A stretch of 36,683 bases of DNA from Candidatus Woesearchaeota archaeon (GTDB lineage Archaea > Nanobdellota > Nanobdellia > Pacearchaeales > GW2011-AR1), in the NCBI GenBank assembly GCA_964652735.1, contig CAZZCD010000002.1, forward strand, positions 1 through 36,683. The letters run 5' to 3'. Positions 1 to 14,359 of the stretch are shown here, piece by piece; positions within the stretch are counted from its first letter, which is position 1; the number at the start of each line of letters is the position of its first letter. The position numbers and the translations under genes were made by a program. The notes under the pieces are model-generated. The model saw only the letters and a list, made by a program, of their open reading frames with translations. It was not told the DNA's origin and ran no database searches.

Positions 1-3000
1 ATTTCAACGGTGCAATTAGTCCTGTTACATTGTTATCATCTAAATAATAATTGCTCCAATCAGCATGGTCAAACCTGCTTGCAGTCATTCTATATGAAAC
101 TTCTCCTGCCTGGGTTCCGTGGATTGTTAAGGTGTTTTTCTCAGGGTTTTTTTCATACCAGACATCTCCATTAAATCCAGGGGTTAATATTATCTGGAGT
201 TTTTCCCAGTTCTCTCCAAAGTCTGTTGTCTGGTAAAATAGCCATAAATCAGAGCCTTTCTCTAGTTTGTCAAATTCAATTGTATAGTTGCTTTTCAGCA
301 TGACACTTCCTGTAACTTCTTCTTTTATCCCAACCATACCAGCCATATATGTTGCATAGTTCGTACCATCAATAGTATAAACAGGGTCAACTGTGCCGAC
401 TGTGATTTTGCTTACTTCGGTGATGGCATTGTTGTTCATATCAAGACCAGCACTAGTAATACGAAATATTTCATCATTACCAGTACTAAATGCCAAGGTA
501 TCAGCTGCATTACCAGGTCTGTATATTCCCGTGTCTCCATCATTTGTAAAAGTATATGCTGGATCACCAGCAGTAGAACTTCCATCTCCAAGCCGTAGTT
601 CATTTGCTATCCTCATATATCCAGCAAAAATAGATTCTCCTGTCCCGCTCACTGTCAAGTCGCCATCTATCTGCAGGTTTCCAGTAGAACCCAGATTCAT
701 CTTCTCAACATTATTAATTAAAAAACCAATATCAACATCTGTATCAAACCTAAGCGCCCAAGCAGCGTCATCATCCAAGAAACCAAATTCTGTACCTGTA
801 GCATATACATAACCATCTGCAACACCATCAGAACCAGCTAACTTAAATCCTGAAGCCGACGACGCACCTTTTACAGTCATTGTATTATAATCCCCAATTA
901 AAGTAGGGGTGGTTATTTCAGGTGAGGTCCCAAATACCCATTTTCCACTTCCTGTTTCATCTGAAACTCGTGTTGCCCAATTAGCAGAAGTTGTTGCAGT
1001 TATCTCTGTGTAATCAATTGCTGTTCCAAGTGTTGCTGCAACTGTTACTTTGTCTGTTGCTGCTCCTGTTGTTGTTATTCCTGTTCCTGCTTCAATTGTT
1101 GCAGTATTTCCACTAGAAATTGTCTGAGGAGTTCCAGAGGTTCCTGCAAGAGTCCAAGAACCATAATTATCAGAAGCTGAATCTGCAGTACAAGTAATTG
1201 TCCCTGCTGCACTTACAGAACTAACTCCTGTATTTGCTCCACAACTGCTTACTTCTAACCAGGCAGCTCCTGCATCTGTAATAGATCCTCCATTAATATC
1301 TAAACTTCCTTCAGCATCTATGTCTCCATCTTCATCAACTTCAAACTTTTGTACTCCCCCAACAGCTAATCCTAATAATGCATAGTCAGCTGTTGCACTA
1401 GCAGGATTAATGTAAACCGGTGCTCCTGAAGCAACTGTAGAAGAAGATAAATCTGTACTTGAAAACTTACCTGTCATTGTTTCATCTTGAGCAAGTGCTA
1501 AATACTGTGGATGGTCATCATCACCCAGACCACCTAAATCATCGTGATCAAAGTCTATCTCTCCAATAGAAATAGCTGTTCCTAATGTTGCTGCAACTGT
1601 TACCTTGTCTGTTGCTGCCCCTGTTGTTGTTATTCCTGTTCCTGCTTCTATTAATGCTGTATTACCCTGTGTAATTGTTTGGCCACTTCCACTAGTTCCT
1701 GCTAATGTGAAACTGCTCATGGTTCCTGTTCCTGTATCTCCTGCACAGTTTATTGTTCCGTCTGATGAGATACTGCTCACATACTGGTCAGCACTGCAAC
1801 CGCCATTGAAGAAGTTTGCTGTATCGTCATAAAGATTCCCGCCTCCTATATCCCAGTTACCATTAGTATAAAGACCAGATCCTGATTGGGATATGTAGTA
1901 ACTAGTCTGGAATGCAGTTCCAGTTCCTGGATAAATAGCTCCTTTAAAGTCAGTGTCATTATCTGTATAGAAAGTTCTGAAATTCTCCTGAACCCGATTG
2001 TTCATACCATAATGAGTGTATCCATTACCAGTGTACCAAATGCTTCCTCTTGCACTGGCCGCTTCTCCAAACTCAATGCCTGCACTGCCTGCGTCATTGC
2101 TCTCAATAAGTATCGTAGGGTCAGCATCATTATCTCCAATTTGTAACAATTCTGTTGGACTCGTCGTCCCTATGCCGACGTTGCCATTAACATATAGGCT
2201 TGCAGTTGAACCTTGGAGATTTGATGACGTGCCAATACCAACCTTCTTGTCAAAAAGGAAATTGCCCCATCCATCCCAGTACATCTTTCCAACTTGTGTA
2301 TCATCAGAGCGACTCGCATTTATTATAACCCTTTCATTATCATCTTCCAAGTGAATGTTTACTTCTTGATTAGCATTACCTAACTGAATATTCCCTGCAA
2401 CATGTAATTTTTCATCAGGGCTTGTCTGCCCGATGCCGACGTTGCCTTTCATATAAATTTCACCTGCCCCTTTAACATACATCAAATCAGACCCATCTTT
2501 ATCTTCAACTATTAAAGTTGTTTCAGTATTGCTATCTCCTGCCCGTATTCTAACACCATTACCAGTAGTAGCGTGAGTATTATCAAAACGTGCTATATAG
2601 TCTGCATTAACCGAATCAACTACATATAACTTATAATTACCAGGATTAGTCGTCCCTATGCCGACGTTTCCTGTTCCTTTTATTATCATAGACTCTTGTT
2701 CCGCAGTGCTATTATAAGTTACAAAATGCATGTCAATTAATGTACCACCAGGAGCGCGGGTATAAATCTTAGCATTATAGCTACCTTGGTTAAATCTTAA
2801 TTCAGTAGTTTCACCTACATCCCATGTAGGATTATGAAGTTCTACAATAGGATTTGATGTATCATAAACCTCCAAATTCGCCCCAGGACTAGTCGTCCCG
2901 ATGCCGACGTTTCCACCTGTTTCTATAACCATTCTTGGATTTGTAGCTAAATCATCTCCGCTTGCAAATGTAAAAGTATTGCTATTTGAATTATCTCTTC

Positions 3001-6000
3001 CAATAGCCCATCCTGCTGCTTGTGTGTCTCTAAATCTTATATCTGAATCACCTGTTCCACCACCATCAATAACTAAAACTGCATTAGCTGCATTTAATAA
3101 TTGCATAGTTCCTTCTCTTACATCTAACTTAGTCGCTGGACTCGTCGTCCCGATGCCGACGTTGCTCGTAATATTATCTATAGCCAAAGCAACTGAACTT
3201 GTCCCATAATTGTAAATCAGTAAATCACCTGAACTTACTGGACGATAAAGTTCCCATTGATAATTTCCATCTTCCATAAAAAAAATGCCTGCTTCTTCAT
3301 TATCAGGTGCATCTAAAAAAAGAAATGCATCTTGAGTAGAACTATTTATTAGTATGCCATCAAGAGCTGTGCTTGTTTCAACAGTTAATTTCTTAGCAGG
3401 GTTAGTTGTTCCGATGCCGACGTTGCCTAAAAAGTAATTATCGTTAGCAGATTCAGTCTGTCTAAAAGTAGCTATATTTGTAAGAGCTCTAGTATTATCA
3501 ATAATAGTAGTCCCATCTATAATAAAACGACTATCTGAACCATTTAACAAAAGGTTTCCTGTTCCTCCTATTTCTAATTGTTTGCTTGGACTCGCCGTCC
3601 CAATGCCGACGTTGCCGTCATTTTGGAATGTTGTTAAAATTGTTGTCCCATACGCTATTTTTATATCATTGCTATCAGCAAATATAGAATATGCATTTGC
3701 TTGACCAGTGTCATCTATAACAAAAGCAGGATTTGCTGAACCTTCAATTTCTAAAAATGTAGATGAACCACCATCTTCTCTTGTTGGACTCGTCGTCCCA
3801 ATGCCAACCTTATCAGTATTACTATCAACAAACAAAACACTTGAATCAACACTAAAGTTATTTGCTCCTAAAACAACATTTTTGAAAGCACCTGTATATG
3901 GAACATAAGTGTCTGAGATGTTTGTATCTTCTGCTCCGTAAATTGTTCCTGTTACATTCAAATCTCCCACAACATTTAATGTGTTTTGTGGGGTTGCTGT
4001 GCCGATGCCGACGTTGCCAGTGGTATACAACTGGTCTGTATATGTATTCTTCCAATATCTAATACTACTACCTAAATCTAAACTACTGTCAGCACTAGGT
4101 TTAAGAACAGCATTAACTTGGACAACACTTGTGGCTGAACCCAAATATAAATCAGAAGCTTTTGTTGTTATCAATGAATATCCTGTTCCATCACCAGAAG
4201 TATCTGTAATTTTTATTCCCCTACTATTTACACTATTAACAACAATGTCCAACTTCGCCGAAGGACTAGTCGTCCCAATGCCAACCTTATCAGTATTACT
4301 ATCAACAAACAAAACACTTGAATCAACACTAAAGTTATTTGCTCCTAAATCAACATTTTTGAAAGCGCCTGTATAAGGCACAAAATCACCTGTAACATTC
4401 ACACCATTAATATATGTATTATGCGCTACAATATCATTTGCAATAAAGTTGTGTGTTCCCTCTATTGCTAAATCATAAACATGTTGTGGCTCGTGAGTTT
4501 TAATTGAAACAATCTTGTCAAAGAAAATATCAGCAGAAACATTTAAATATTTATTACCAGTATCTTTAGTTATGGTTGAAGTTACTATATCAATACCTGG
4601 AAAATTGAAAGAGAAAATGCAAAGAAGTGGCATAGGACTACATGTATTAGTTGAAAGACTAATAAAACAATTAGAAGAAGAGAAAGAAATGATAGATTGG
4701 TCAGTTAAATTGCAAAGAGCTTCTAGGAAAGGTAGGTTTGATGAACTGAAAAGAAGAGGATTAGTATAAATGAAATTTGTAGTTGATACAAATGTGTTAT
4801 TAACATTTTTTTGGGAGGATTCTTTTACTAAAGGAATATTACTTGACCAAGATTTTGAATTCTTTGCCCCAGAATATGCGTTAGAAGAAATCAATGGGCA
4901 TATATCTGAAATATTGCAAAAAACAAACACCTCATTAGAGCAATTCAAAGAACTAAGAAGAGATTTAGCTATCTGTGTTGAATTTATTCCATTAGAAAAA
5001 TATTCAGAATTTCTACAAAAAGTTTCAGATATTTCAGATAAAAAAGATGTTGATTTTATCGCATTAGCACTAAAACTCAAACTTCCTGTCTGGTCTAATG
5101 ACAAACATCTTAAGCAACAATCTTTAGTTAAAATATTCACAACAGAAGAATTAGTTAAATCCTTAGAATCCTCATAATTTCCTAACTTAGGAACAGCAAT
5201 CTCCTCACCTTCTTCTAATTCACTAACTTTAACCCAACCATCCTCTGTTAAATAAGGATGATTCCCAGTTGTGTTAACAGCTCTGCCACTCTCTGTAATC
5301 AACTCATAAATAGGCTTTTCACCCATATCTAATAAAGCTTTGACTTTGTTTGAAACAATCTCACCTGTTTCTTCATCTAAACTCAAAACATATTCACCAG
5401 CTTCAATATCTTTAATCTGCTTCTCTGAACCGTCTGCCATTGAAATCAGGCTGTCTTCTGCAACACACAATCCTGTTACGTTTAAGTCTCCATCAACATT
5501 CAAGGTGTTTTGTGGTGTTGTCGTCCCGATGCCGACGTTTCCACCTTCTAAGATTGTCATCTTCACATCATTACTTGTAGCAAAATATAATGGTTTGGCT
5601 TCTAACACATTAATCATACCATATTCTGCTGCATTATATCCGATATTCATACCATCTGAAATAAGAGCTCCTGTTTCATCTGTTGTAAATTTAATATATG
5701 CCTGACCTAAGCTGTGAATCTGAAGTGGGCGTGTTGGACTCGCCGTCCCGATGCCGACGTTGCCGTTAATCGCTAAAGCCGTACCCGCCGCCAAAGATTG
5801 ATCTGCCACATAGCCAATTACCTGGGCTCCTGATGATTGAACTGCCCAAGTATAAGATGACCCCGAACCAATATGTAACAATCCAAGAGGATTCGTCGTC
5901 CCGATGCCGACGTTGCCGTCTCCTCTTACGAGAAAATAGTTGCTTGAACCTGTTCGGTCTTGAATATAAAATGCTTTATCAGAAGAATTTGTCCCAGCTT

Positions 6001-9000
6001 TTATCCATGGTCCAAAACTCTGACCCGTTGTACTTCCTGCAGTAATTTCAGAAACATAATAATTATCCGCACCTGTCAATTCAAGCGCTCGTTGAGCGGC
6101 TCCTGCTAAGATTTCTACTTTATTACTTGGATTCGTAACTCCAATGCCGACGTTTCCTTCAACAATCAATCCATTAGCAGGAGGTTGTATATTATAATAA
6201 CCTCCTACCGAGAGACCAGAATTACTATGAAGTCCCATACCATACGCACCTTCATAAAATCTCATAAAATTAATGCCGGTAGTATTCACATTTTGTATAA
6301 ATGCTTGCACCCCTCCTGACGCTGAGTTTTCCAATCTTAAAGTAGGGTTATTATCCTTCAAATGAAGTAAGGAAGAAGGACTACTCGTCCCAATCCCAAC
6401 CATATTAGTATTTGAATCAACAAACAAAACACTTGAATCAACACTAAAGTTATTCGCTCCTAAATCAACATTGTAAAGAGCACCTGTATATGGAACATAA
6501 GTGTCTGAAAGATTTGCATCTCCTGCTCCGTATATTGTTCCGGTCACGTTTAAATCTCCAACAACATTCAAAGTGTTTTGTGGTGTTGTTGTGTTAATGC
6601 CGACGTTGCCGCTTCCTATAATAGCCAAAGCATCTCTGAAATCAGTACCATTAGATTGACTTAGATAAAGGTTACCATATATGTCATTACCTTTTGCTAT
6701 AATTTGAGTTGTCCCAAAGGCAGTATTAAATTGTCCCCAAGTATGATAATCATCTCCACCAGTATACCTATAAACCCGTATTCCATCAGTACTTCTATTT
6801 TCAGCACCACTAATTTTATTTAAGGTTAAATGAGCAGGAAGTGTTGAAGCGTCCCCGATGCCGACGTTTCCTCCTTGTTGTATTCTCATTGCCTCTGCAA
6901 CAGTACCACCTTGCTCTACTGCAAAAGCTAAATCACTATCGGTAGAACCTGTATCAATACCTGATATTCTGGCTATATTACCAGAACCTAAATTAAATAA
7001 AAGATTAGCAAATGAGTTAGTAGCACCATCTTCGTTTTGTATCATAATAGTTGCATCTGCTTCCTGACCACTAGAACTACTAGCATCATACGCTGTGGCA
7101 TCATCCTTCCTAACAACTAATAATGATGCTGGTGTTGTCGTCCCGATGCCGACGTTGCCACCTGTTTCAACCGTTACCAATTCCTGACTATTCATAGTAT
7201 TCACAGCCCCGTAAGCAATTTGGAATTTAGTATCATCATTCATACCTAATTTCCATGAATTAGCTTCTGCTGCTCCACCGCCAACTTCATAATAAATTTC
7301 ACCTGCTGCACTTTTTCCTCTAACTTCTATGGAAACATCTGCTGCATTTGTAAATGATGCTAATTGCTCATTATCTCCTGTAACTTCTAAAACATGCCCA
7401 GGTGTCGCCGTCCCGATGCCGACCCTATCAGTATTACTATCAACAAACAAAACACTTGAATCAACACTAAAATTATTTGCTCCTAAATCAACATTTTTTG
7501 TTGCACCTGTGTAAGGCACAAAATCCCCTGTAACATTCACACCATTAATATATGTATTATGAGCAACAATGTCATTTGCAATAAAGTTGTGTGTGTTTTC
7601 TATTGCAAGGTCATAAACATGCTGTGCTGGGTGTTGTTCTATTGAAGTTATTTTTTCCCATTTTATTATGTTTTGCCCATAATCAGGCACTGCTATTTCC
7701 ATTCCTTCTTCTAAATAAATTACTTTAAGCCACTCTACACCATCAGAAAGTTTTAAATATTCCTTGTTACTATTTTTATTTATGGCTGAATTAATAACTT
7801 CCCCTGAAACTGAATTAGATTTTAAATTAATGTCTAAAGCTGTAGTTCGATTAATGAAACAAGACATATCTGTAAGATTTAAACAAACAAGAGAAATAAC
7901 TGATGAAGATTGGGAATTTTGTGAGCAAATTAATTGGCATCCTGTTGATGAACTACCTATGAAAGAAGAATTTGTTAAAGAACTAAGAAAAAGAGAAAAA
8001 GGTCCGTTCATTAAATTTAATTCTGTGGATGAACTATTTAAAAAATGAGTTATACTCAAATTATTCATCCCAAATGTCAAAGAGAAATTAATAAGGTCTG
8101 TAGAAAAAATCCTATTCTTGAAAAAGTCCTTAGAAAAAAGATGGATGAAATCATCCAAAACCCCGGTCACTATAAATCTCTCAGACATGAGCTTGCTGGA
8201 GAAAGAAGAGTTCACATCCTCAAAAGTTTTATCCTCAAATTCAAAATTGATGAAGTCAACAAAATAGTTATGTTCCTCGCCTTCAGGCACCACGACAAAG
8301 CCTACTGATTTTTCCCCTAATTTTTCCTCAGAAGATAATTTAACCAAATAAGGATGATTTCCTGTTGTATTAATGCTTCTACCAGATTCTGTGGTTAACT
8401 CATAAATAGGCTTTTCACCCATATCTAATAATGCTAACACTTCATTAGAAACAATGTCTCCTGTTTCTTCATCTAAACTTAAAACACGCTCTCCCATTTG
8501 AACATCTTTAATCTCTTTTTTAGTTCCATCTGCCATTGAAATCAGAGAGTCTTCTGCAACACACAATCCTGTGACATTCAAATCTCCATCAACATTCAAT
8601 GTGTTTTGTGGTGTTGATGTGTTGATGCCGACGTTGCCGTCATTTTGAATCCTGACCCGTTCGTTCCCAGCCGCTTGACCTCCAGAATAAAATCGTATAT
8701 TACCAGAAGTATGACGTGCTATGATACTCAAACCCCCACTTAAATCTCCATCTGCTTCAATTGCTGCACCATCTTGCAGATATGCCCCAATAGGAGTATA
8801 TGCACTACCAAATGTAAAGAGATTCAACCAACCGCCATCGGCTTGAATTGAAGCTAGAGAACGTGAGTTGTTAGTTGGTTCTTTTACATAGAGGTCACCA
8901 TCATAAACTTCCAACTTCGCCGAAGGACTCGCCGTCCCAATTCCGACGTTACCACCTTCTAAAATAACCATATGCTCAGCTAATGTTCCAGTTCCTATAT

Positions 9001-9478
9001 TTTTCTTAAATATTAATCTTTCATTATCACTTTCAATGCCAACTATCCATTCATCTGTAGGAGACACTGAAGTTCCACCACTAGAAAGATACAAGTTTGA
9101 ATCTCCTCCACCTGCTTCGTGAATTTGAATAAGTCCTTGGACATCAAGTGCTTGATGTGGAGCAGTCGTCCCGATGCCGACGTTTCCTGAACTATCTAAA
9201 TTAATCCCTGTAGTTCCAGCATACTTAATATTCATTACATCATTACCTTGGTTATAATATAAATAACCTTTATTAGTGCCAGCATCTACTTGGAATCTTA
9301 TACCTACATCTGTATCTGCTGAATTAGCATCTGTATCTGAATTTATATCAATCCATGCTTCTCCTGTATCCGCTACATCTAACTTCTGTGAAGGACTCGT
9401 CGTCCCGATGCCGACATTACTGTTGTTATCAACATAAACATCTTCCTGATGCACGAAAGAATCGTGATATTCTGTTCT
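1..9478 (-). CDS. Giant repeat-rich secreted/surface fibre protein, 3'-partial (continues past the window start); hosts two inteins
   Basis: Plus-strand triplets in phase 2 mod 3 contain no TTA/CTA/TCA. I checked this by hand for 2-1650, 4430-5281, 5912-6154, 7742-8563 and 9380-9478. For the remainder it is implied by the absence of any in-phase minus-strand ORF call. An ORF with no stop inside the window is not listed, as shown by the unlisted partial pyrH at the right edge. The translation is Gly/Thr/Asn/Val-rich with 23 in-frame G-N-V-G-I-G-T-T-S-P modules and a DDHPQYL motif. Its repeat units match those in ORF 9479..12646. Confidence 0.8.
1020..1648 (-). repeat. Direct duplication of a 74-nt core (1020-1093 and 1575-1648) within a roughly 555-nt module repeat
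   Basis: The two copies differ at 4 positions. Both encode ...EAGTGITTTGAATDKVTVAATLGTA... Confidence 0.8.
4542..4549 (+). promoter_or_regulatory. TATA box of the intein-2 VapBC operon
   Basis: TTTAAATA (context TTTAAATATT) lies 30 nt upstream of ATG 4572. Confidence 0.5.
4572..4769 (+). CDS. VapB-like antitoxin (65 aa) embedded antisense in intein 2
   Basis: The ORF track calls a TTG start at 4515, which would lie inside the intein C-lobe. ATG 4572 is 30 nt downstream of TTTAAATA. The N-terminus MVEVTISIPGKLKEKM is typical of a small RHH/AbrB-type antitoxin. Its TAA stop is immediately followed by the vapC ATG. Confidence 0.6.
   Translation: MVEVTISIPGKLKEKMQRSGIGLHVLVERLIKQLEEEKEMIDWSVKLQRASRKGRFDELKRRGLV
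4770..5177 (+). CDS. vapC: PIN-domain toxin VapC (135 aa) embedded antisense in intein 2
   Basis: The N-terminus is MKFVVDTNVLL (first acidic residue). It continues ...APEYALEEI..., ...DVDFIALALKL... and ...VWSNDKHL, giving the PIN acidic-residue pattern. Size and position directly after a small antitoxin ORF also fit. Confidence 0.8.
   Translation: MKFVVDTNVLLTFFWEDSFTKGILLDQDFEFFAPEYALEEINGHISEILQKTNTSLEQFKELRRDLAICVEFIPLEKYSEFLQKVSDISDKKDVDFIALALKLKLPVWSNDKHLKQQSLVKIFTTEELVKSLESS
7752..7759 (+). promoter_or_regulatory. TATA box of the intein-1 TA operon
   Basis: TTTAAATA (context TTTAAATATT) lies 30 nt upstream of ATG 7782. The VapBC cassette has the identical box and spacing. Confidence 0.5.
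7782..8048 (+). CDS. Putative antitoxin (88 aa) of the intein-embedded RelE-type module
   Basis: The ORF track calls a TTG start at 7764. I prefer ATG 7782, which lies exactly 30 nt downstream of TTTAAATA. Its stop overlaps the toxin start (ATGA at 8045-8048). It is small and acidic, and its C-terminus (...REKGPFIKFNSVDELFKK) resembles that of the antitoxin at 13866 (...YEKGRFVELK). Confidence 0.6.
   Translation: MAELITSPETELDFKLMSKAVVRLMKQDISVRFKQTREITDEDWEFCEQINWHPVDELPMKEEFVKELRKREKGPFIKFNSVDELFKK
8045..8308 (+). CDS. RelE/ParE-family toxin (87 aa) embedded antisense in intein 1
   Basis: The pattern ...NPGHYKSLRHELAGERRVHILKSFILKFKIDEVNKIVMFLAFRHHDKAY matches the RelE/ParE layout (NP..x..L...L.G..R..i...f.l.y.i.......v....HH..aY). 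Its size is as expected and it has a 4-nt overlap with the upstream antitoxin. Confidence 0.75.
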   Translation: MSYTQIIHPKCQREINKVCRKNPILEKVLRKKMDEIIQNPGHYKSLRHELAGERRVHILKSFILKFKIDEVNKIVMFLAFRHHDKAY

Positions 9479-12400
9479 CTATAGATATTGTGCTTTTACT
9501 TCATCTGCTGATAATGCCCGGTTGTAAATGCGAACATCATCTAAACTCCCATTTAAATAATTACCCCCCCTATTCCCAATTGATGTAAGAGTAAAAGATG
9601 AAAAATCAGTAGATGTACCGCTAACATCATTTTCACCATTTAAATATATAATTGTTTGATTGTTTGTCTCATCATAGGTTAATGTTATAAATACCCACTC
9701 ATTTAAATTCCAAGGATTACTATTTAAATAATCACCTTCGTCTGCTAGTGCCCAATGTATATGATTATATAAATAAACATCCAAACCATCATTGGTAGAT
9801 GTAAATATTCCTGTCCAATATGCTTTAGTATATTGATAAAGCCATAATTCAGCACTAAATGACCCTGATATTGTTCTTCCTACACTAATATAATCATCTC
9901 CATCAAATTCAAAATCACCACCATTATTGAATCCACCTGATGAATTTGCTGTTGCTCCGTGATTTGTTCCGTGTTGATTGTAAATAGAACTATCTAAAAC
10001 AGTTTCGCTTCCTGCTGAACCTACAAGGTTTTCAGAATTAAAATTCATCGCTAAAATTAATCCTTCATCTGAAATCTCATGAATGCTTTTTGTATTTGTA
10101 AAACCATTAACATCTAATGTATAATTGGGACTAGTCGTCCCGATGCCGACGTTGCCTCCTGATTCAATTCTAAGAAGTTCTCCACCATTATATTGAAATA
10201 TATAATTACCTCCACTTATCCAATAACGGTCTAAAACAAAATCACCATTAGCATCATAAAACTCAATCGTCCCATAATGAGTTGCATCACTGCCCCCACC
10301 TATTTTTTTACTATTAGGTATGCTTAATTGATAAAGAGGACTCGTCTCCCCGATGCCAACGTTACCGCCTGCTTCTATTCTCATCTTTTCAGACCAACCA
10401 CTCTGTCCATAAGCACTATAAGTCCCAAACACTAAATCAGCAGGGGCATCAGAATCTCCAAAAGCAATATATGAATCAGTAGCATCTGCTGTTAAGATTA
10501 TAAAATTATCATTTGTATCCTCTTTTATCCCAAATGTAGCACTGGCTTTAGTTATATCTAAAGTTTTGGTTGGACTAGTCGTCCCAATCCCAACCATATC
10601 AGTATTTGAATCAACAAACAAAGTATCTGTGTCTACAGTCAGATTCTTCTTCAGCTCTGTGTTTCCGTAAACAATAAAATCATTAACTACACTCATGTTC
10701 TGCTTTGTCAGATTCATAGAAGTTATATTATAAACATAAATTGTCTGTGCATAAATACTGCCTGCGTCAATTGTAACACCTCCAGAAGCCCAGTCTCCAT
10801 CTACATCCAAGCTTCCTGCAATATCAAAATCCCCTACTACAGAAGTGTTCAAAGGCATGAAGAAAGTTGAGTCATAGCCATCCAGGGTCTCAGAACCCTG
10901 AGCAGATATATTAATGCATGTCAAAGTATCTCCAATTATTTGAACAGCATGTCCAGCAGGACAGGCAGAAGGATAATTTGTAAGATTTGCCCATCCGAGC
11001 AAACTTGTTCCATAATTCAAAGCAACTGTTTCTGTATAACCTTCTCCAGGTGTTCCTGAAACACTTATTCCACTTCCAGAAGCAACATCTCCGACATAAT
11101 TTCCAGTTGTATCTGTTCCAAGAACAACAGAATCTGGCTGCACAGCTGTAACTCCTGTGCTTGAAATATTAATATCTCCAGAAACAGCTTTTGTTTCCCA
11201 GGCAGTTCCAGAACCAATCAAAATATTTCCAGAAGTTGCAGTGGTTGTTCCAAGAGATGAGCCATTTATCTTAACAACATCTGGATTTGGATAAGTTCCA
11301 GATAAATCACCACCTGCAGTCTGTCCTTCTTTAATATAATTATTATCAAAATAAGTAGTATTTACATTTATAGTAGTTGTTCCGCCCAAAGCCACAGAAC
11401 CTCCTCCTATCAAACCAGTGCCTGCAGTAATAGTTAAAGTTGAATTAGCCAAGTCTACATTTCCAACAGCTCCGTCAGTTATCATAGCACTAGTTATTGA
11501 GTCCACTTGGTCTTCATTCACATACCTAATATCTCCTGTCTGGTTAAGCTTAGTCTCATTAAGAATAAAATAATTACTTGCATTCTTATAGATATAAATC
11601 CCTCCTGCATAATATAAGGTATCTGTATTAATATCTTCAGAACACTCCCAAGCAGAAGAAGTAGCATTCCACTTAGCAATCTCTGTATCTGCACAGCTCA
11701 ATCCTGCAAGAGTGTCATTCTCTCTAAGATCAATAGTCTGATTAAGCTGGCTTTCTGAAAAACTTAAAGTTGAACCGTCAAATGTCAGATAATCGCTGTC
11801 TTCTGTCCAATTAAATCTTCCTTTGAACCAGTCTGCTGTCACATTTCCTGTAACATTAACATCACCACCAACCCTGATATCTCCTGTAACATTTATATCT
11901 CCAGAAACATTAACATCTTGAACAAATAAACTTGTTATTCTATTTATCAAGCTTCCTAAAAAGCTGAAAAATCCTGAACTAGCACTTACATTATAACTTC
12001 CTAAAGTAAGATTAGAATCCACACTAACCTCACTCAAATTAACATCTGTTGCCCTAAATGCATAAGGAACTCTTCCAAGCTGAGATACATTCTTCAAAGT
12101 TCCATCTCTGTAATAACATAAGTAATACTGGGTGTCATAATCTAGTAAACTGAGATTCCCTCCTCCTGAGCCAACTGTTGGAAGATAAAGTGAAACAATT
12201 CCTCGTGTATCTGTAGTTTGTGAGGTAGAATGGTTATAAACAACATCAGGACCACAAAGTGTACTTGAATTATCTGTAATATTAAATCCAAAAGTAAACG
12301 TTCCTGTTTCAATTGTTCCATTAGAAAATGTTGTCTGAAGATTTATATGAAAAGTGTCATTGATTGGAGCAGCAGAAACCATGCTTAAAAAGAATATCAA

Positions 12401-12646
12401 ACTTGAAGCCAAAAATAAATTTATTAATAATTTCTTAGAACTTGTAAATTTTGGATTTTGTTTTTTAACAGTTTTTTTATTTTTCTGTTTAGATGGATAT
12501 TTTTTAAACTCTATCTTTTTCTTACTAACTGAAATATACCATACACTACTTGACATACAATTATTAATCAAAGACCAATCATAAAAATTAGGAACCATTT
12601 CAGGTCTAAAACAGGGTATTTTGGGCCTTTTGTATGTTTTTTCCAT
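9479..12646 (-). CDS. N-terminal part of the giant surface protein (signal anchor, fibre repeats, LamG-like jelly-roll domain); ends at a TAG in the same phase as the downstream 9.5 kb frame
   Basis: ORF track gives 1055 aa. An ATATAAAA box lies 29 nt upstream of ATG 12646. There is a hydrophobic anchor LLINLFLASSLIFFLSMVSAAP and more than 30 N-x-S/T sequons by eye. Three NVGIGT(T/E)SP-type modules are present. The C-terminal ...GSLDDVRIYNRALSADEV is typical of LamG/concanavalin-like domains. Confidence 0.85.
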   Translation of the reverse strand: MEKTYKRPKIPCFRPEMVPNFYDWSLINNCMSSSVWYISVSKKKIEFKKYPSKQKNKKTVKKQNPKFTSSKKLLINLFLASSLIFFLSMVSAAPINDTFHINLQTTFSNGTIETGTFTFGFNITDNSSTLCGPDVVYNHSTSQTTDTRGIVSLYLPTVGSGGGNLSLLDYDTQYYLCYYRDGTLKNVSQLGRVPYAFRATDVNLSEVSVDSNLTLGSYNVSASSGFFSFLGSLINRITSLFVQDVNVSGDINVTGDIRVGGDVNVTGNVTADWFKGRFNWTEDSDYLTFDGSTLSFSESQLNQTIDLRENDTLAGLSCADTEIAKWNATSSAWECSEDINTDTLYYAGGIYIYKNASNYFILNETKLNQTGDIRYVNEDQVDSITSAMITDGAVGNVDLANSTLTITAGTGLIGGGSVALGGTTTINVNTTYFDNNYIKEGQTAGGDLSGTYPNPDVVKINGSSLGTTTATSGNILIGSGTAWETKAVSGDINISSTGVTAVQPDSVVLGTDTTGNYVGDVASGSGISVSGTPGEGYTETVALNYGTSLLGWANLTNYPSACPAGHAVQIIGDTLTCINISAQGSETLDGYDSTFFMPLNTSVVGDFDIAGSLDVDGDWASGGVTIDAGSIYAQTIYVYNITSMNLTKQNMSVVNDFIVYGNTELKKNLTVDTDTLFVDSNTDMVGIGTTSPTKTLDITKASATFGIKEDTNDNFIILTADATDSYIAFGDSDAPADLVFGTYSAYGQSGWSEKMRIEAGGNVGIGETSPLYQLSIPNSKKIGGGSDATHYGTIEFYDANGDFVLDRYWISGGNYIFQYNGGELLRIESGGNVGIGTTSPNYTLDVNGFTNTKSIHEISDEGLILAMNFNSENLVGSAGSETVLDSSIYNQHGTNHGATANSSGGFNNGGDFEFDGDDYISVGRTISGSFSAELWLYQYTKAYWTGIFTSTNDGLDVYLYNHIHWALADEGDYLNSNPWNLNEWVFITLTYDETNNQTIIYLNGENDVSGTSTDFSSFTLTSIGNRGGNYLNGSLDDVRIYNRALSADEVKAQYL

Positions 12647-13539: not shown

Positions 13540-13660
13540 GAGCCTGTAGCTCAGTCTGGTTAGAGCACTGCTCTTATATGAATCTAATTCGCAAGGATTA
13601 GTTTCTCTTGGAAGATTCTAAGAGAGGCAGGGGTCCTCGGTTCAAATCCGAGCAGGCTCA
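13540..13660 (+). tRNA. tRNA-Ile(UAU)-like with a 46-nt intron (13579-13624) at the canonical 37/38 position
   Basis: I folded it by hand. Acceptor is GAGCCUG/CAGGCUC, D stem GCUC/GAGC and anticodon stem CUGCU/GGCAG. The loop is C-U-UAU-A then the intron. T arm is CUCGG-UUCAAAU-CCGAG and the discriminator is A. TTTAAATA lies at 13509-13516, 31 nt upstream. Confidence 0.75.
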
Positions 13661-13741
13661 TAAAACTTTTAAAAAGTTTTAGATCAAACCTAGATACTTA
13701 TCAGTTATCTTTAAAAACTAATTTTGATAATTCTTTATAAT

Positions 13742-13814
13742 GCCCCGATAGTTCAGAGGCCAAGAATGCAAGGTTTTCAACCTTGTGACCCGGGTTCGAA
13801 TCCCGGTCGGGGCG
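13742..13814 (+). tRNA. tRNA-Glu(UUC)
   Basis: Acceptor is GCCCCGA/UCGGGGC, D stem GUUC/GAAU and anticodon stem CAAGG/CCUUG with loop UU-UUC-AA. T arm is CCGGG-UUCGAAU-CCCGG. Confidence 0.9.
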
Positions 13815-13839
13815 TTATAACCCTAATTTAAAAGAAAGA

Positions 13840-13865: not shown

Positions 13866-14105
13866 ATGTATATGGAAACAACCATCAGGCTTAATATTGA
13901 TATAAAAAAAAGGTTGGATTCAATGAAAATTCATTCTAGAGAAAGTTATAATGATGTTGTTGCTAGAATTATAGGAGACAATAAGAAAATTGATGAAGAA
14001 AGTTTAAAAGAAACTATAGAAGTTCTCAGTGACCCCAAAACAATGAGAGACATTGCAGAAGCTCTTGAAGATTATGAAAAGGGGAGATTTGTAGAGCTTA
14101 AATGA
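13866..14105 (+). CDS. RHH-type antitoxin (RelB/ParD-like)
   Basis: The N-terminus TIRLNIDIKKRLDSMK looks like an RHH strand. It has an acidic C-terminus and an ATGA overlap with the toxin at 14102. Confidence 0.7.
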   Translation: MYMETTIRLNIDIKKRLDSMKIHSRESYNDVVARIIGDNKKIDEESLKETIEVLSDPKTMRDIAEALEDYEKGRFVELK

Positions 14106-14359
14106 GCTATAAAATATTTCTTTCTCCAAAGGCAAACGATTTCTTAGAAAAACTTGATAAAAAAGATAAAGAAAGGATGAAGAACAAATTAAAAGATTTA
14201 AGAGAAAGTCCAGAATTAGGAAAACCCCTTATAGGAAAGCTTGCTGGTTTGTGGAGTTTAAGAGCAGGGGATTATCGTGCTTTATATCAAATAAGAGATA
14301 GTGAACTCTTAATTCTTGTTTTAAAAATTGATCATAGAAAAAAGATATATAAAAAATAG
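14102..14359 (+). CDS. relE: RelE/ParE-family toxin
   Basis: ...LRESPELGKPLIGKLAGLWSLRAGDYRALYQIRDSELLILVLKIDHRKKIYK is the canonical RelE pattern. Confidence 0.85.
   Translation: MSYKIFLSPKANDFLEKLDKKDKERMKNKLKDLRESPELGKPLIGKLAGLWSLRAGDYRALYQIRDSELLILVLKIDHRKKIYKK

Follow-up and report, generated by a model that had tools for sequence, protein, structure and literature searches.

The stretch of DNA analysed here, hereafter the window, comprises 36,683 nucleotides of contig CAZZCD010000002.1 (assembly GCA_964652735.1) from Candidatus Woesearchaeota archaeon, and it contains a giant minus-strand gene with two mini-inteins, IntA and IntB. It is very probable that a toxin–antitoxin cassette sits reversed within the loop of each of these inteins and that selection against nonsense mutations in the giant gene shapes the codons of the cassette. 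Direct support comes from the two-strand anatomy of the locus, from the motifs and fold of the inteins, from codon avoidance on the scale of a whole cassette family and from a contrast in selection between the two coding frames.

The host frame (5..9478, minus strand) is free of stops for 3158 codons, stays open in DNA of 35–40% GC and continues beyond the left edge of the window. It encodes a protein built of 'GNVGIGT(T/S)SP' repeats, in which two stretches match the Pfam family Intein_splicing (PF14890; 4.1e-48). These correspond to IntA (336 residues; 7556-8563, minus strand) and its paralogue IntB (350 residues; 4418-5467, minus strand), whose catalytic residues are identical. Both start with CVAEDSL, providing Cys1 as the N-terminal nucleophile, contain the block B TxxH motif (TGNH) as NTTGNHPYL, and end in IVAHN followed by Thr as the +1 extein residue. 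Their insertion points in a paralogous repeat are equivalent, both following ..PQNTLNVDGDLNVTG, and the extein repeats resume in the same frame on either side of each. The splicing domain of IntA consists of residues 1-78 and 272-336; residues ~80-270 result from reading through cassette A in antisense, and cassette B accounts in the same way for the middle of IntB. The division within IntA is reflected in an AlphaFold2 model, with predicted local distance difference test scores (pLDDT) >90 at 1-78 and 272-336 and <50 at 82-270. Foldseek matched the confident part to the DnaB and RecA mini-inteins (4o1r, 1mi8, 3ifj) with template modelling scores of 0.88-0.90. IntA and IntB are class-1 mini-inteins with intact motifs and fold, and they would be expected still to splice with the insert present. 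No endonuclease family was detected on either strand of the inteins with Pfam or NCBIfam. Two further paralogous sites within the same giant protein are unoccupied (6539..6550, minus strand, ..DLNVTG/TIYGA.., and 3947-3958, minus strand), which suggests that there is no ongoing homing.

On the plus strand, the ORFs (open reading frames) embedded in the two inteins are type II toxin–antitoxin operons as judged by gene order, size and toxin family. Cassette A consists of an antitoxin of 88 residues (7782..8048), with relatives at 50-74% identity, and a RelE/YafQ-like toxin of 87 residues (8045..8308), the two genes overlapping by the 4 bp ATGA. The toxin matches PF05016 (6.2e-6) and, under the curated cutoff, the NCBIfam YafQ family TIGR00053 (2.1e-15); a sequence search of the Protein Data Bank with it gave no match. 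In cassette B, a VapB-like antitoxin of 65 residues (4572..4769) abuts a PIN_2 toxin of 135 residues (4770..5177) that matches PF10130 over its full length (3.9e-19). The cassette B antitoxin has a weak VapB match in NCBIfam (4572-4766) and is 60% identical to its homologue at locus L002, one of the related loci described below. Neither embedded antitoxin has a Pfam match. The antitoxin of cassette A (7782-8045) gave a weak match (E 0.0014) to positions 354-437 of the 864 in NF003157, a model of the intein-containing replication factor C small subunit, which is probably noise.

Each antitoxin–toxin pair is preceded by a single putative promoter. The TATA box TTTAAATA starts 30 nucleotides before the antitoxin ATG, at 7752..7759 in cassette A and at 4542..4549 in cassette B (ATG at 4572), with the purine-rich AGAAAG and with AGAAAC upstream, respectively. 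This distance fits a leaderless mRNA. The sequence AGAAAnnTTTAAATAT is common to both cassettes, and the TATA motif with its 30-nucleotide spacing recurs in most homologous cassettes. Immediately 3' of the cassette A toxin stop lie two T5 runs (TTTTTCCCCTAATTTTTCC; 8309..8327, plus strand) that are likely to act as an archaeal terminator. With such elements, each cassette would be transcribed from its own promoter. Even the control elements are legible on the other strand: in the intein frame, the TATA box of cassette A is read as ..YLK.. and the T-runs as EKLGEK.

The preliminary description of this DNA, made from the letters and ORFs alone, had placed the RelE-like toxin and the intein frame in exact codon register, and we find that both indeed lie on plus-strand triplets at 2 mod 3. 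Its codon counts likewise hold. The toxin encodes leucine by three CTT and four CTC codons and serine by two AGT and one TCT, with no TTA, CTA or TCA. A free-standing toxin–antitoxin pair in the window (13866..14359, plus strand; a VapB_antitox-family antitoxin and a ParE/RelE-family toxin) serves as an internal control. Its antisense frames are closed, and its toxin (14102..14359), which also matches PF05016 and shares 27% identity with the embedded toxin over 52 residues, uses TTA for 8 of its 15 leucine codons. The three other embedded genes start at 0 mod 3, one base off the intein phase, and have 4 (7782..8048), 3 (4572..4769) and 11 (4770..5177) TTA codons in their own frames; the cassette A antitoxin contains three CTA codons as well. 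Antisense stops nevertheless number 40, 36 and 0 in the three plus-strand phases across IntA and 48, 30 and 0 across IntB, the open phase being that of the intein in both cases.

Background rates were taken from the other genes of the window. There, leucine is encoded by TTA at 36.5%, CTA at 8.7%, CTT at 32% and CTC at 4.4%, so that CTT and CTC are not the usual choice, and 24% of serine codons are TCA. Antisense stops occur at 0.056, 0.037 and 0.068 per codon in the three registers, and the longest antisense open runs are 110, 178 and 102 codons; shadow ORFs elsewhere reach about the length that had been claimed. On these empirical densities, cassette A would be open by chance with a probability of ~2e-4, and cassette B with one of ~5e-4. 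When synonymous codons were instead resampled from the usage of these genes, the probability of finding no intein-frame stop was 0.006 in the case of the RelE-like toxin; the PIN toxin gave 0.06-0.07, the VapB-like antitoxin 0.47-0.50 and the cassette A antitoxin 1.0. No stop can arise in the last of these, because the protein has no Tyr and its Gln and His residues always follow Lys, Glu or Trp. Openness is therefore not a common outcome of synonymous shuffling for the toxin. The preliminary description had also drawn on the openness over the three offset genes; this is observed, but singly these genes are weak evidence, their proteins making the register an easy one. The within-window signal is real and is carried mostly by the RelE-like toxin.

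Might the open frame reflect chance or shared ancestry? The codon-mirroring register is known as the most open shadow frame, and a recent insert could still be open in the absence of selection. Within the window this explanation draws some strength from the resampling results for the antitoxin, VapB and PIN genes, which are unremarkable, and from register 1 having the lowest antisense stop density; the toxin alone already speaks against it. The question was settled by homologous cassettes. Alignment of the antitoxin retrieved 94 loci, 52 from metagenomes and 42 from genomes (numbered with the prefix L). The genome loci belong mostly to Woesearchaeota, Pacearchaeota and Nanoarchaeota, with some from Methanoperedens, Methanophagales, Methanosarcinales and Thermoplasmatales. 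Among 64 distinct RelE-type cassettes compared, 41 have one antisense phase free of stops across the antitoxin–toxin span and 23 are closed. The open cassettes are mostly from DPANN archaea and have a median amino-acid identity of 61%. In all 41 the open phase coincides exactly with the codons of the toxin and is shifted by one base from those of the antitoxin; each of the other phases contains 6-33 stops. Twenty-six lie inside giant frames or frames that leave the contig (the largest outside the window has 2272 codons), and the giant frames of these relatives carry Laminin_G_3 and Big domains; in the remaining 15, openness is limited to the cassette itself. In addition, a protein search with IntA found many database proteins that match its middle at 44-57% identity, which means that the antisense frame of the cassette is open elsewhere.

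The codons that would be stops in the intein phase are entirely missing from the open toxins, in which 0 of 286 leucine and 0 of 150 serine codons are TTA, CTA or TCA, compared with 49 of 179 and 10 of 105 in the closed relatives (0/436 versus 59/284 when leucine and serine are combined). If the closed class is taken as background, the open set has a probability of 1e-46; the codon usage of the window gives 1e-95. At conserved leucine columns the open set mixes CTT, CTC, TTG and CTG, indicating synonymous turnover among the allowed codons, and the closed set most commonly has TTA. Absence of forbidden codons in 41 cassettes that are this diverged and have exchanged synonymous codons, together with the preference of closed relatives for TTA at the same columns, refutes chance and common descent at the family level, and we regard that explanation as extremely unlikely. 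The idea that the choice of codons in the toxin is shaped by the open intein frame is thus borne out both by the resampling and by the homologous cassettes. The 18 PIN_2 toxins in the fetched loci, which are 31-65% identical to that of the window, are all open in one register, and their sequences permit only that register. Similarly, openness over the RelE-type toxin is possible in register 0 alone; the ATGA overlap then brings the antitoxin into register 1, in which, by an exact dynamic-programming calculation, its sequence is inherently free of stops. CTC is the commonest leucine codon of the open toxins (116 of 286), and accounts for four of the seven in the toxin of the window, for 16% in the closed relatives and for ~4% in the other window genes.

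RelE/YafQ-type toxins cleave mRNA in a codon-specific manner, which makes it conceivable that such a toxin avoids its own cleavage codons, or codons read by rare tRNAs, so that the codon bias serves the toxin–antitoxin system and the open antisense frame is a by-product. Open cassettes that are free-standing would fit a cause intrinsic to the cassette. However, the antitoxin on the same mRNA has the in-frame TTA and CTA codons noted above, and TTA is plentiful in the PIN gene. Moreover, the avoidance concerns one antisense phase, which extends unbroken across promoter, antitoxin, toxin and 3' flank as well as the intein blocks, and the set of avoided codons shifts with the register just as antisense stops predict. 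An intrinsic bias therefore appears extremely unlikely as the source of the pattern.

To compare selection on the two strands, we took 48 pairs from among the open toxins, the members of each pair being 70-90% identical. For the toxin frame, the ratio of nonsynonymous to synonymous differences (pN/pS) was 0.22, against 1.18 for the intein frame that mirrors it, with pS values of 0.3-0.9 among the open toxins, so the cassettes are not near-identical at synonymous sites. The toxin protein is under purifying selection. On the intein strand within the cassette, selection acts solely against stops and the sequence is otherwise free. The proposal that purifying selection acts on both strands at once therefore stands for the toxin and needs to be restated for the intein strand, which is merely kept free of stops.

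These values also bear on whether the antisense read-through is a functional domain, either a third overlapping gene or an intein linker, that is conserved for its sequence. Such a role could account for the database matches over this stretch and for free-standing cassettes remaining open, and the excess of CTC, which is GAG on the antisense strand, might mirror an amino-acid preference. The intein-frame pN/pS of ~1.2 points the other way, as do the low AlphaFold2 confidence and the lack of a Pfam family match for the intein middles read in the intein frame. Their richness in Ser, Leu, Asn and Phe is what a Lys/Glu-rich gene should yield when its reverse complement is translated, no start codon is conserved among free-standing copies, and the 44-57% identity is explained by conservation of toxin and antitoxin on the opposite strand. 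We consider a functional read-through domain very unlikely.

It is just as improbable that only one strand is functional, with either the toxin–antitoxin ORFs decaying or the giant gene a pseudogene. Degraded versions do occur among the relatives: at loci L003-L008 the intein carries a frameshift and a stop, and at L032 the giant frame is broken by a single stop. In the window, though, both toxins give full-length domain matches, the catalytic residues of the inteins are intact and the same extein repeats flank each intein in frame, to which the toxin-frame pN/pS and a frame of 3158 open codons at this GC content may be added. The degraded inteins of L003-L008 lie on virus-like contigs (for example L003 9652-10846), with the frameshift in the N-terminal block and the stop in the C-terminal block, and hold an antisense RelE-like gene that is 44% identical. 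These contigs also encode a Peptidase_S74 tail fibre and gyrase genes with LAGLIDADG inteins, and the protein with the degraded intein was found in 25 contig-index blocks (24 contigs examined).

Several observations sit less comfortably with nonsense selection in the intein as the full account. Stop avoidance by itself leaves the excess of CTC over CTT unexplained, and for the antitoxin, VapB and PIN genes of the window open frames are not uncommon under synonymous shuffling. The 15 free-standing cassettes keep their antisense frame open outside any intein; the constraint may not come solely from inteins, or the free-standing open copies may be recent escapees. Examples without a surrounding intein are found at L070 (3907-4581), L016 (3838-4521), L029 and L071 (3949-4578) and L077 (3967-4677 and 4698-5450), a set that includes an intergenic copy, Methanoperedens copies and adjoining RelE-type and PIN-type cassettes. 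The constraint is also not absolute, since in the population represented by L032, L033 and L073 a single stop in the embedded toxin breaks the giant frame. In these groundwater Nanoarchaeota one TTA (L032 4411, also in L033 and L073) splits a giant antisense frame into 1470 and 526 codons, and the stop is either a fresh pseudogene mutation or a step towards a split intein. Finally, a divergent intein family that hosts some of the related cassettes, described below, matches Intein_splicing in Pfam only below the curated threshold, over a span that includes the cassette.

Taking these points together with the supporting evidence, we favour the following account of the locus. In two paralogous repeats of a giant surface-protein gene of DPANN type, a class-1 mini-intein breaks the gene at the corresponding position, and a compact cassette, consisting of a putative promoter with TFB recognition element (BRE) and TATA box, antitoxin, toxin and T-run, has been inserted in reverse orientation in a loop of each splicing domain. 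Ribosomes would have to traverse the intein to complete the giant protein, and translation through the intein would in turn require the reverse complement of the cassette to be stop-free in one phase. The read-through product, presumably a disordered linker of ~190-210 residues, would be excised with the intein by protein splicing; because the intein removes it, the sequence of the linker would otherwise be irrelevant. A mutation that creates TTA, CTA or TCA in the intein phase would truncate the host protein and be purged. For the in-register toxin this would forbid two of the six leucine codons and one of the six serine codons. For the genes offset by one base it would bar a codon ending in T or C before Tyr, and a codon ending in T before His or Gln. 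Toxin and antitoxin, expressed from their own promoter, would meanwhile experience ordinary purifying selection.

As to why the cassettes lie where they do, the reason we favour is that a long ORF may offer no place other than an intein loop for an insert that keeps the frame and is free of cost. Precise loss of the insert from the loop would be unlikely, and as an addiction module the cassette may guard an endonuclease-less intein and its locus against loss or against replacement by an intein-free allele.

The relatives indicate that cassettes entered inteins more than once. RelE-type cassettes occur in inteins of the CVAE(D/N)SL type seen in the window (L074, L025 and L027) and in a divergent type in which the cassette is flanked by CYDxxT..SPEHRVY on one side and ..IYDVDVxNDIVLV..WSGNS on the other, so that cassettes occupy at least two unrelated intein families. 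tblastn with block queries from IntA and IntB found intein blocks in few loci, as if most giant ORFs of the relatives contained cassettes without inteins; the translations and a Pfam scan revealed the second, divergent family at those loci, and that reading was rejected for them. Alignment of IntA, IntB, L002 and L074 defines two insertion sites around the hairpin DGxxWxKVxxLEEGxEIAVP. The RelE-type cassette of IntA and the PIN-type cassette of L002 precede the hairpin, the PIN-type cassette of IntB and the RelE-type cassette of L074 follow it, and location in two different loops of homologous inteins implies independent insertions. Homology between cassettes stretches from the TATA box to the toxin stop codon and ends at these two points. 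Neither terminal repeats nor a recombinase were found at the cassettes, and a scan of viral contigs with the antitoxin profile yielded no relatives.

Some relatives carry cassettes in tandem within one open frame, with other antitoxin and toxin types included. At L094, L083, L068, L027 and L092, three to six mixed toxin–antitoxin cassettes lie antisense in a single frame of 900-1900 codons, and many antitoxins of these arrays have the common N-terminus M(V/A)S(V/I)T..P.ELK....F.W(I/V)NWSE. The 4.1-kb contig L001 (1-4114) contains three antisense cassettes and two tRNA genes in a complex array with four repeated C-terminal segments ending in ..FFDNQGNLKLQGGYAENYASP*, spanned as a whole by plus-strand ORFs of 385 and 637 residues; no intein blocks were detected in it. 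tRNA genes are found elsewhere too, on the sense strand and in frame, within giant ORFs or CYD-type inteins of the relatives. The sites are L061 5046-5739, L064 5214-5304, L065 2037-2118, L066 1325-1412 and, for the L001 pair, 332-413 and 1577-1658. They score 46-56 bits with Rfam, are assigned by ARAGORN to Ile, Phe, Leu and Val with lengths of 82-92 nucleotides, and are each preceded by a TATA-like segment read as ..NNYLNVS... The inteins of those relatives seem to carry tRNA cargo too.

A broader interpretation joins these strands, although we put it forward tentatively and think it somewhat doubtful as a whole. The cassette lineage may be adapted to antisense stop-freeness, the tRNA genes of relatives being embedded in the same way, and inteins in giant DPANN genes may act as integration platforms on which an insert is invisible to the host protein. 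Addiction, by killing cells that lose the intein allele, would replace the homing endonuclease, and cassettes would shuttle between inteins and intergenic sites. If such shuttling takes place, it would follow that free-standing copies are still open.

Two further features of the window deserve brief mention. A single in-frame TAG (9479-9481, minus strand) divides an ORF of 1055 residues with a Laminin_G_3 match (9479-12646, minus strand) from the 3158-codon ORF. After this stop there is no nearby ATG at the start of the downstream part, where a GTG is found eight codons in; two genes, a nonsense mutation and read-through are all possibilities. A 121-nucleotide Rfam tRNA match (13540-13660; 56.8 bits) that was missed by ARAGORN adjoins tRNA-Glu (13741-13815) and is probably an intron-containing archaeal tRNA. 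This tRNA and the taxonomy of the related loci point to an archaeon of DPANN type.

The nearest precedents are inteins with an antisense or out-of-frame homing endonuclease (Gorbalenya 1998, as cited in bioRxiv 10.1101/2025.01.02.630785). Inteins of this non-canonical kind have been surveyed in actinobacteriophages (bioRxiv 10.1101/2025.01.02.630785), and a cyanobacterial dnaX intein has an out-of-frame endonuclease (bioRxiv 10.64898/2026.09.14.751524). As in the present case, a second ORF overlaps the region between the blocks while the intein frame stays open and encodes no recognizable fold. In those systems, the dnaX intein among them, the cargo frame likewise has a low ratio of nonsynonymous to synonymous substitution rates (dN/dS) and the intein frame a high one. 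The cargo described here differs in being a two-gene toxin–antitoxin operon with its own predicted promoter and terminator, in comprising several cassette types (RelE/YafQ-like, PIN_2/VapBC and others) that form arrays in relatives, and in having entered intein loops at more than one site and in at least two families. It is found in giant surface proteins rather than in replication or phage-packaging enzymes, and the empty paralogous target sites argue against active homing.

Compared with type II RelE/YafQ and VapBC (PIN) modules, the cassettes share the order of antitoxin then toxin, the small genes, the 4-bp ATGA overlap in the RelE-type pair and toxins that match PF05016/TIGR00053 and PF10130. 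They differ in that they are nested antisense in the coding sequence of another gene, which imposes a codon constraint, and in that the RelE-type antitoxin has no Pfam family. A separate gene between N- and C-terminal intein halves is also a feature of fractured genes, in which a free-standing gene for an endonuclease is flanked by split inteins (Dassa et al. 2009, PMC2677866). Here, by contrast, the intein forms one unbroken frame that crosses the gene within it in antisense; the sole variant that comes near a split arrangement is L032, whose linker contains a single stop. Rickettsia palindromic elements, which are short and non-coding, insert in frame into ORFs and are translated. Inserted DNA is likewise tolerated there by keeping the host frame open, but the inserts described here are 0.6-kb operons within an intein and would thus be removed from the mature protein. 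Antisense and out-of-frame endonuclease inteins are therefore known, and we found no report of toxin–antitoxin genes inside inteins in a full-text literature search, which did not cover subscription journals.

The locus offers an unusually clean natural case of selection on an antisense frame, in which the forbidden codons can be read off directly, are absent from 41 diverged copies and return in relatives that live outside ORFs. Gene callers that bar long overlaps on opposite strands will miss the embedded toxin–antitoxin genes, and censuses of toxin–antitoxin and defence systems in DPANN archaea are probably underestimates. For intein engineering it is relevant that disordered inserts of 190-210 residues appear to be tolerated by class-1 mini-inteins in two different loops. 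Overall, the range of intein cargo is widened beyond endonucleases to whole selfish operons with promoters of their own, and this suggests a route by which endonuclease-less inteins may persist, an open problem in the homing-cycle model.

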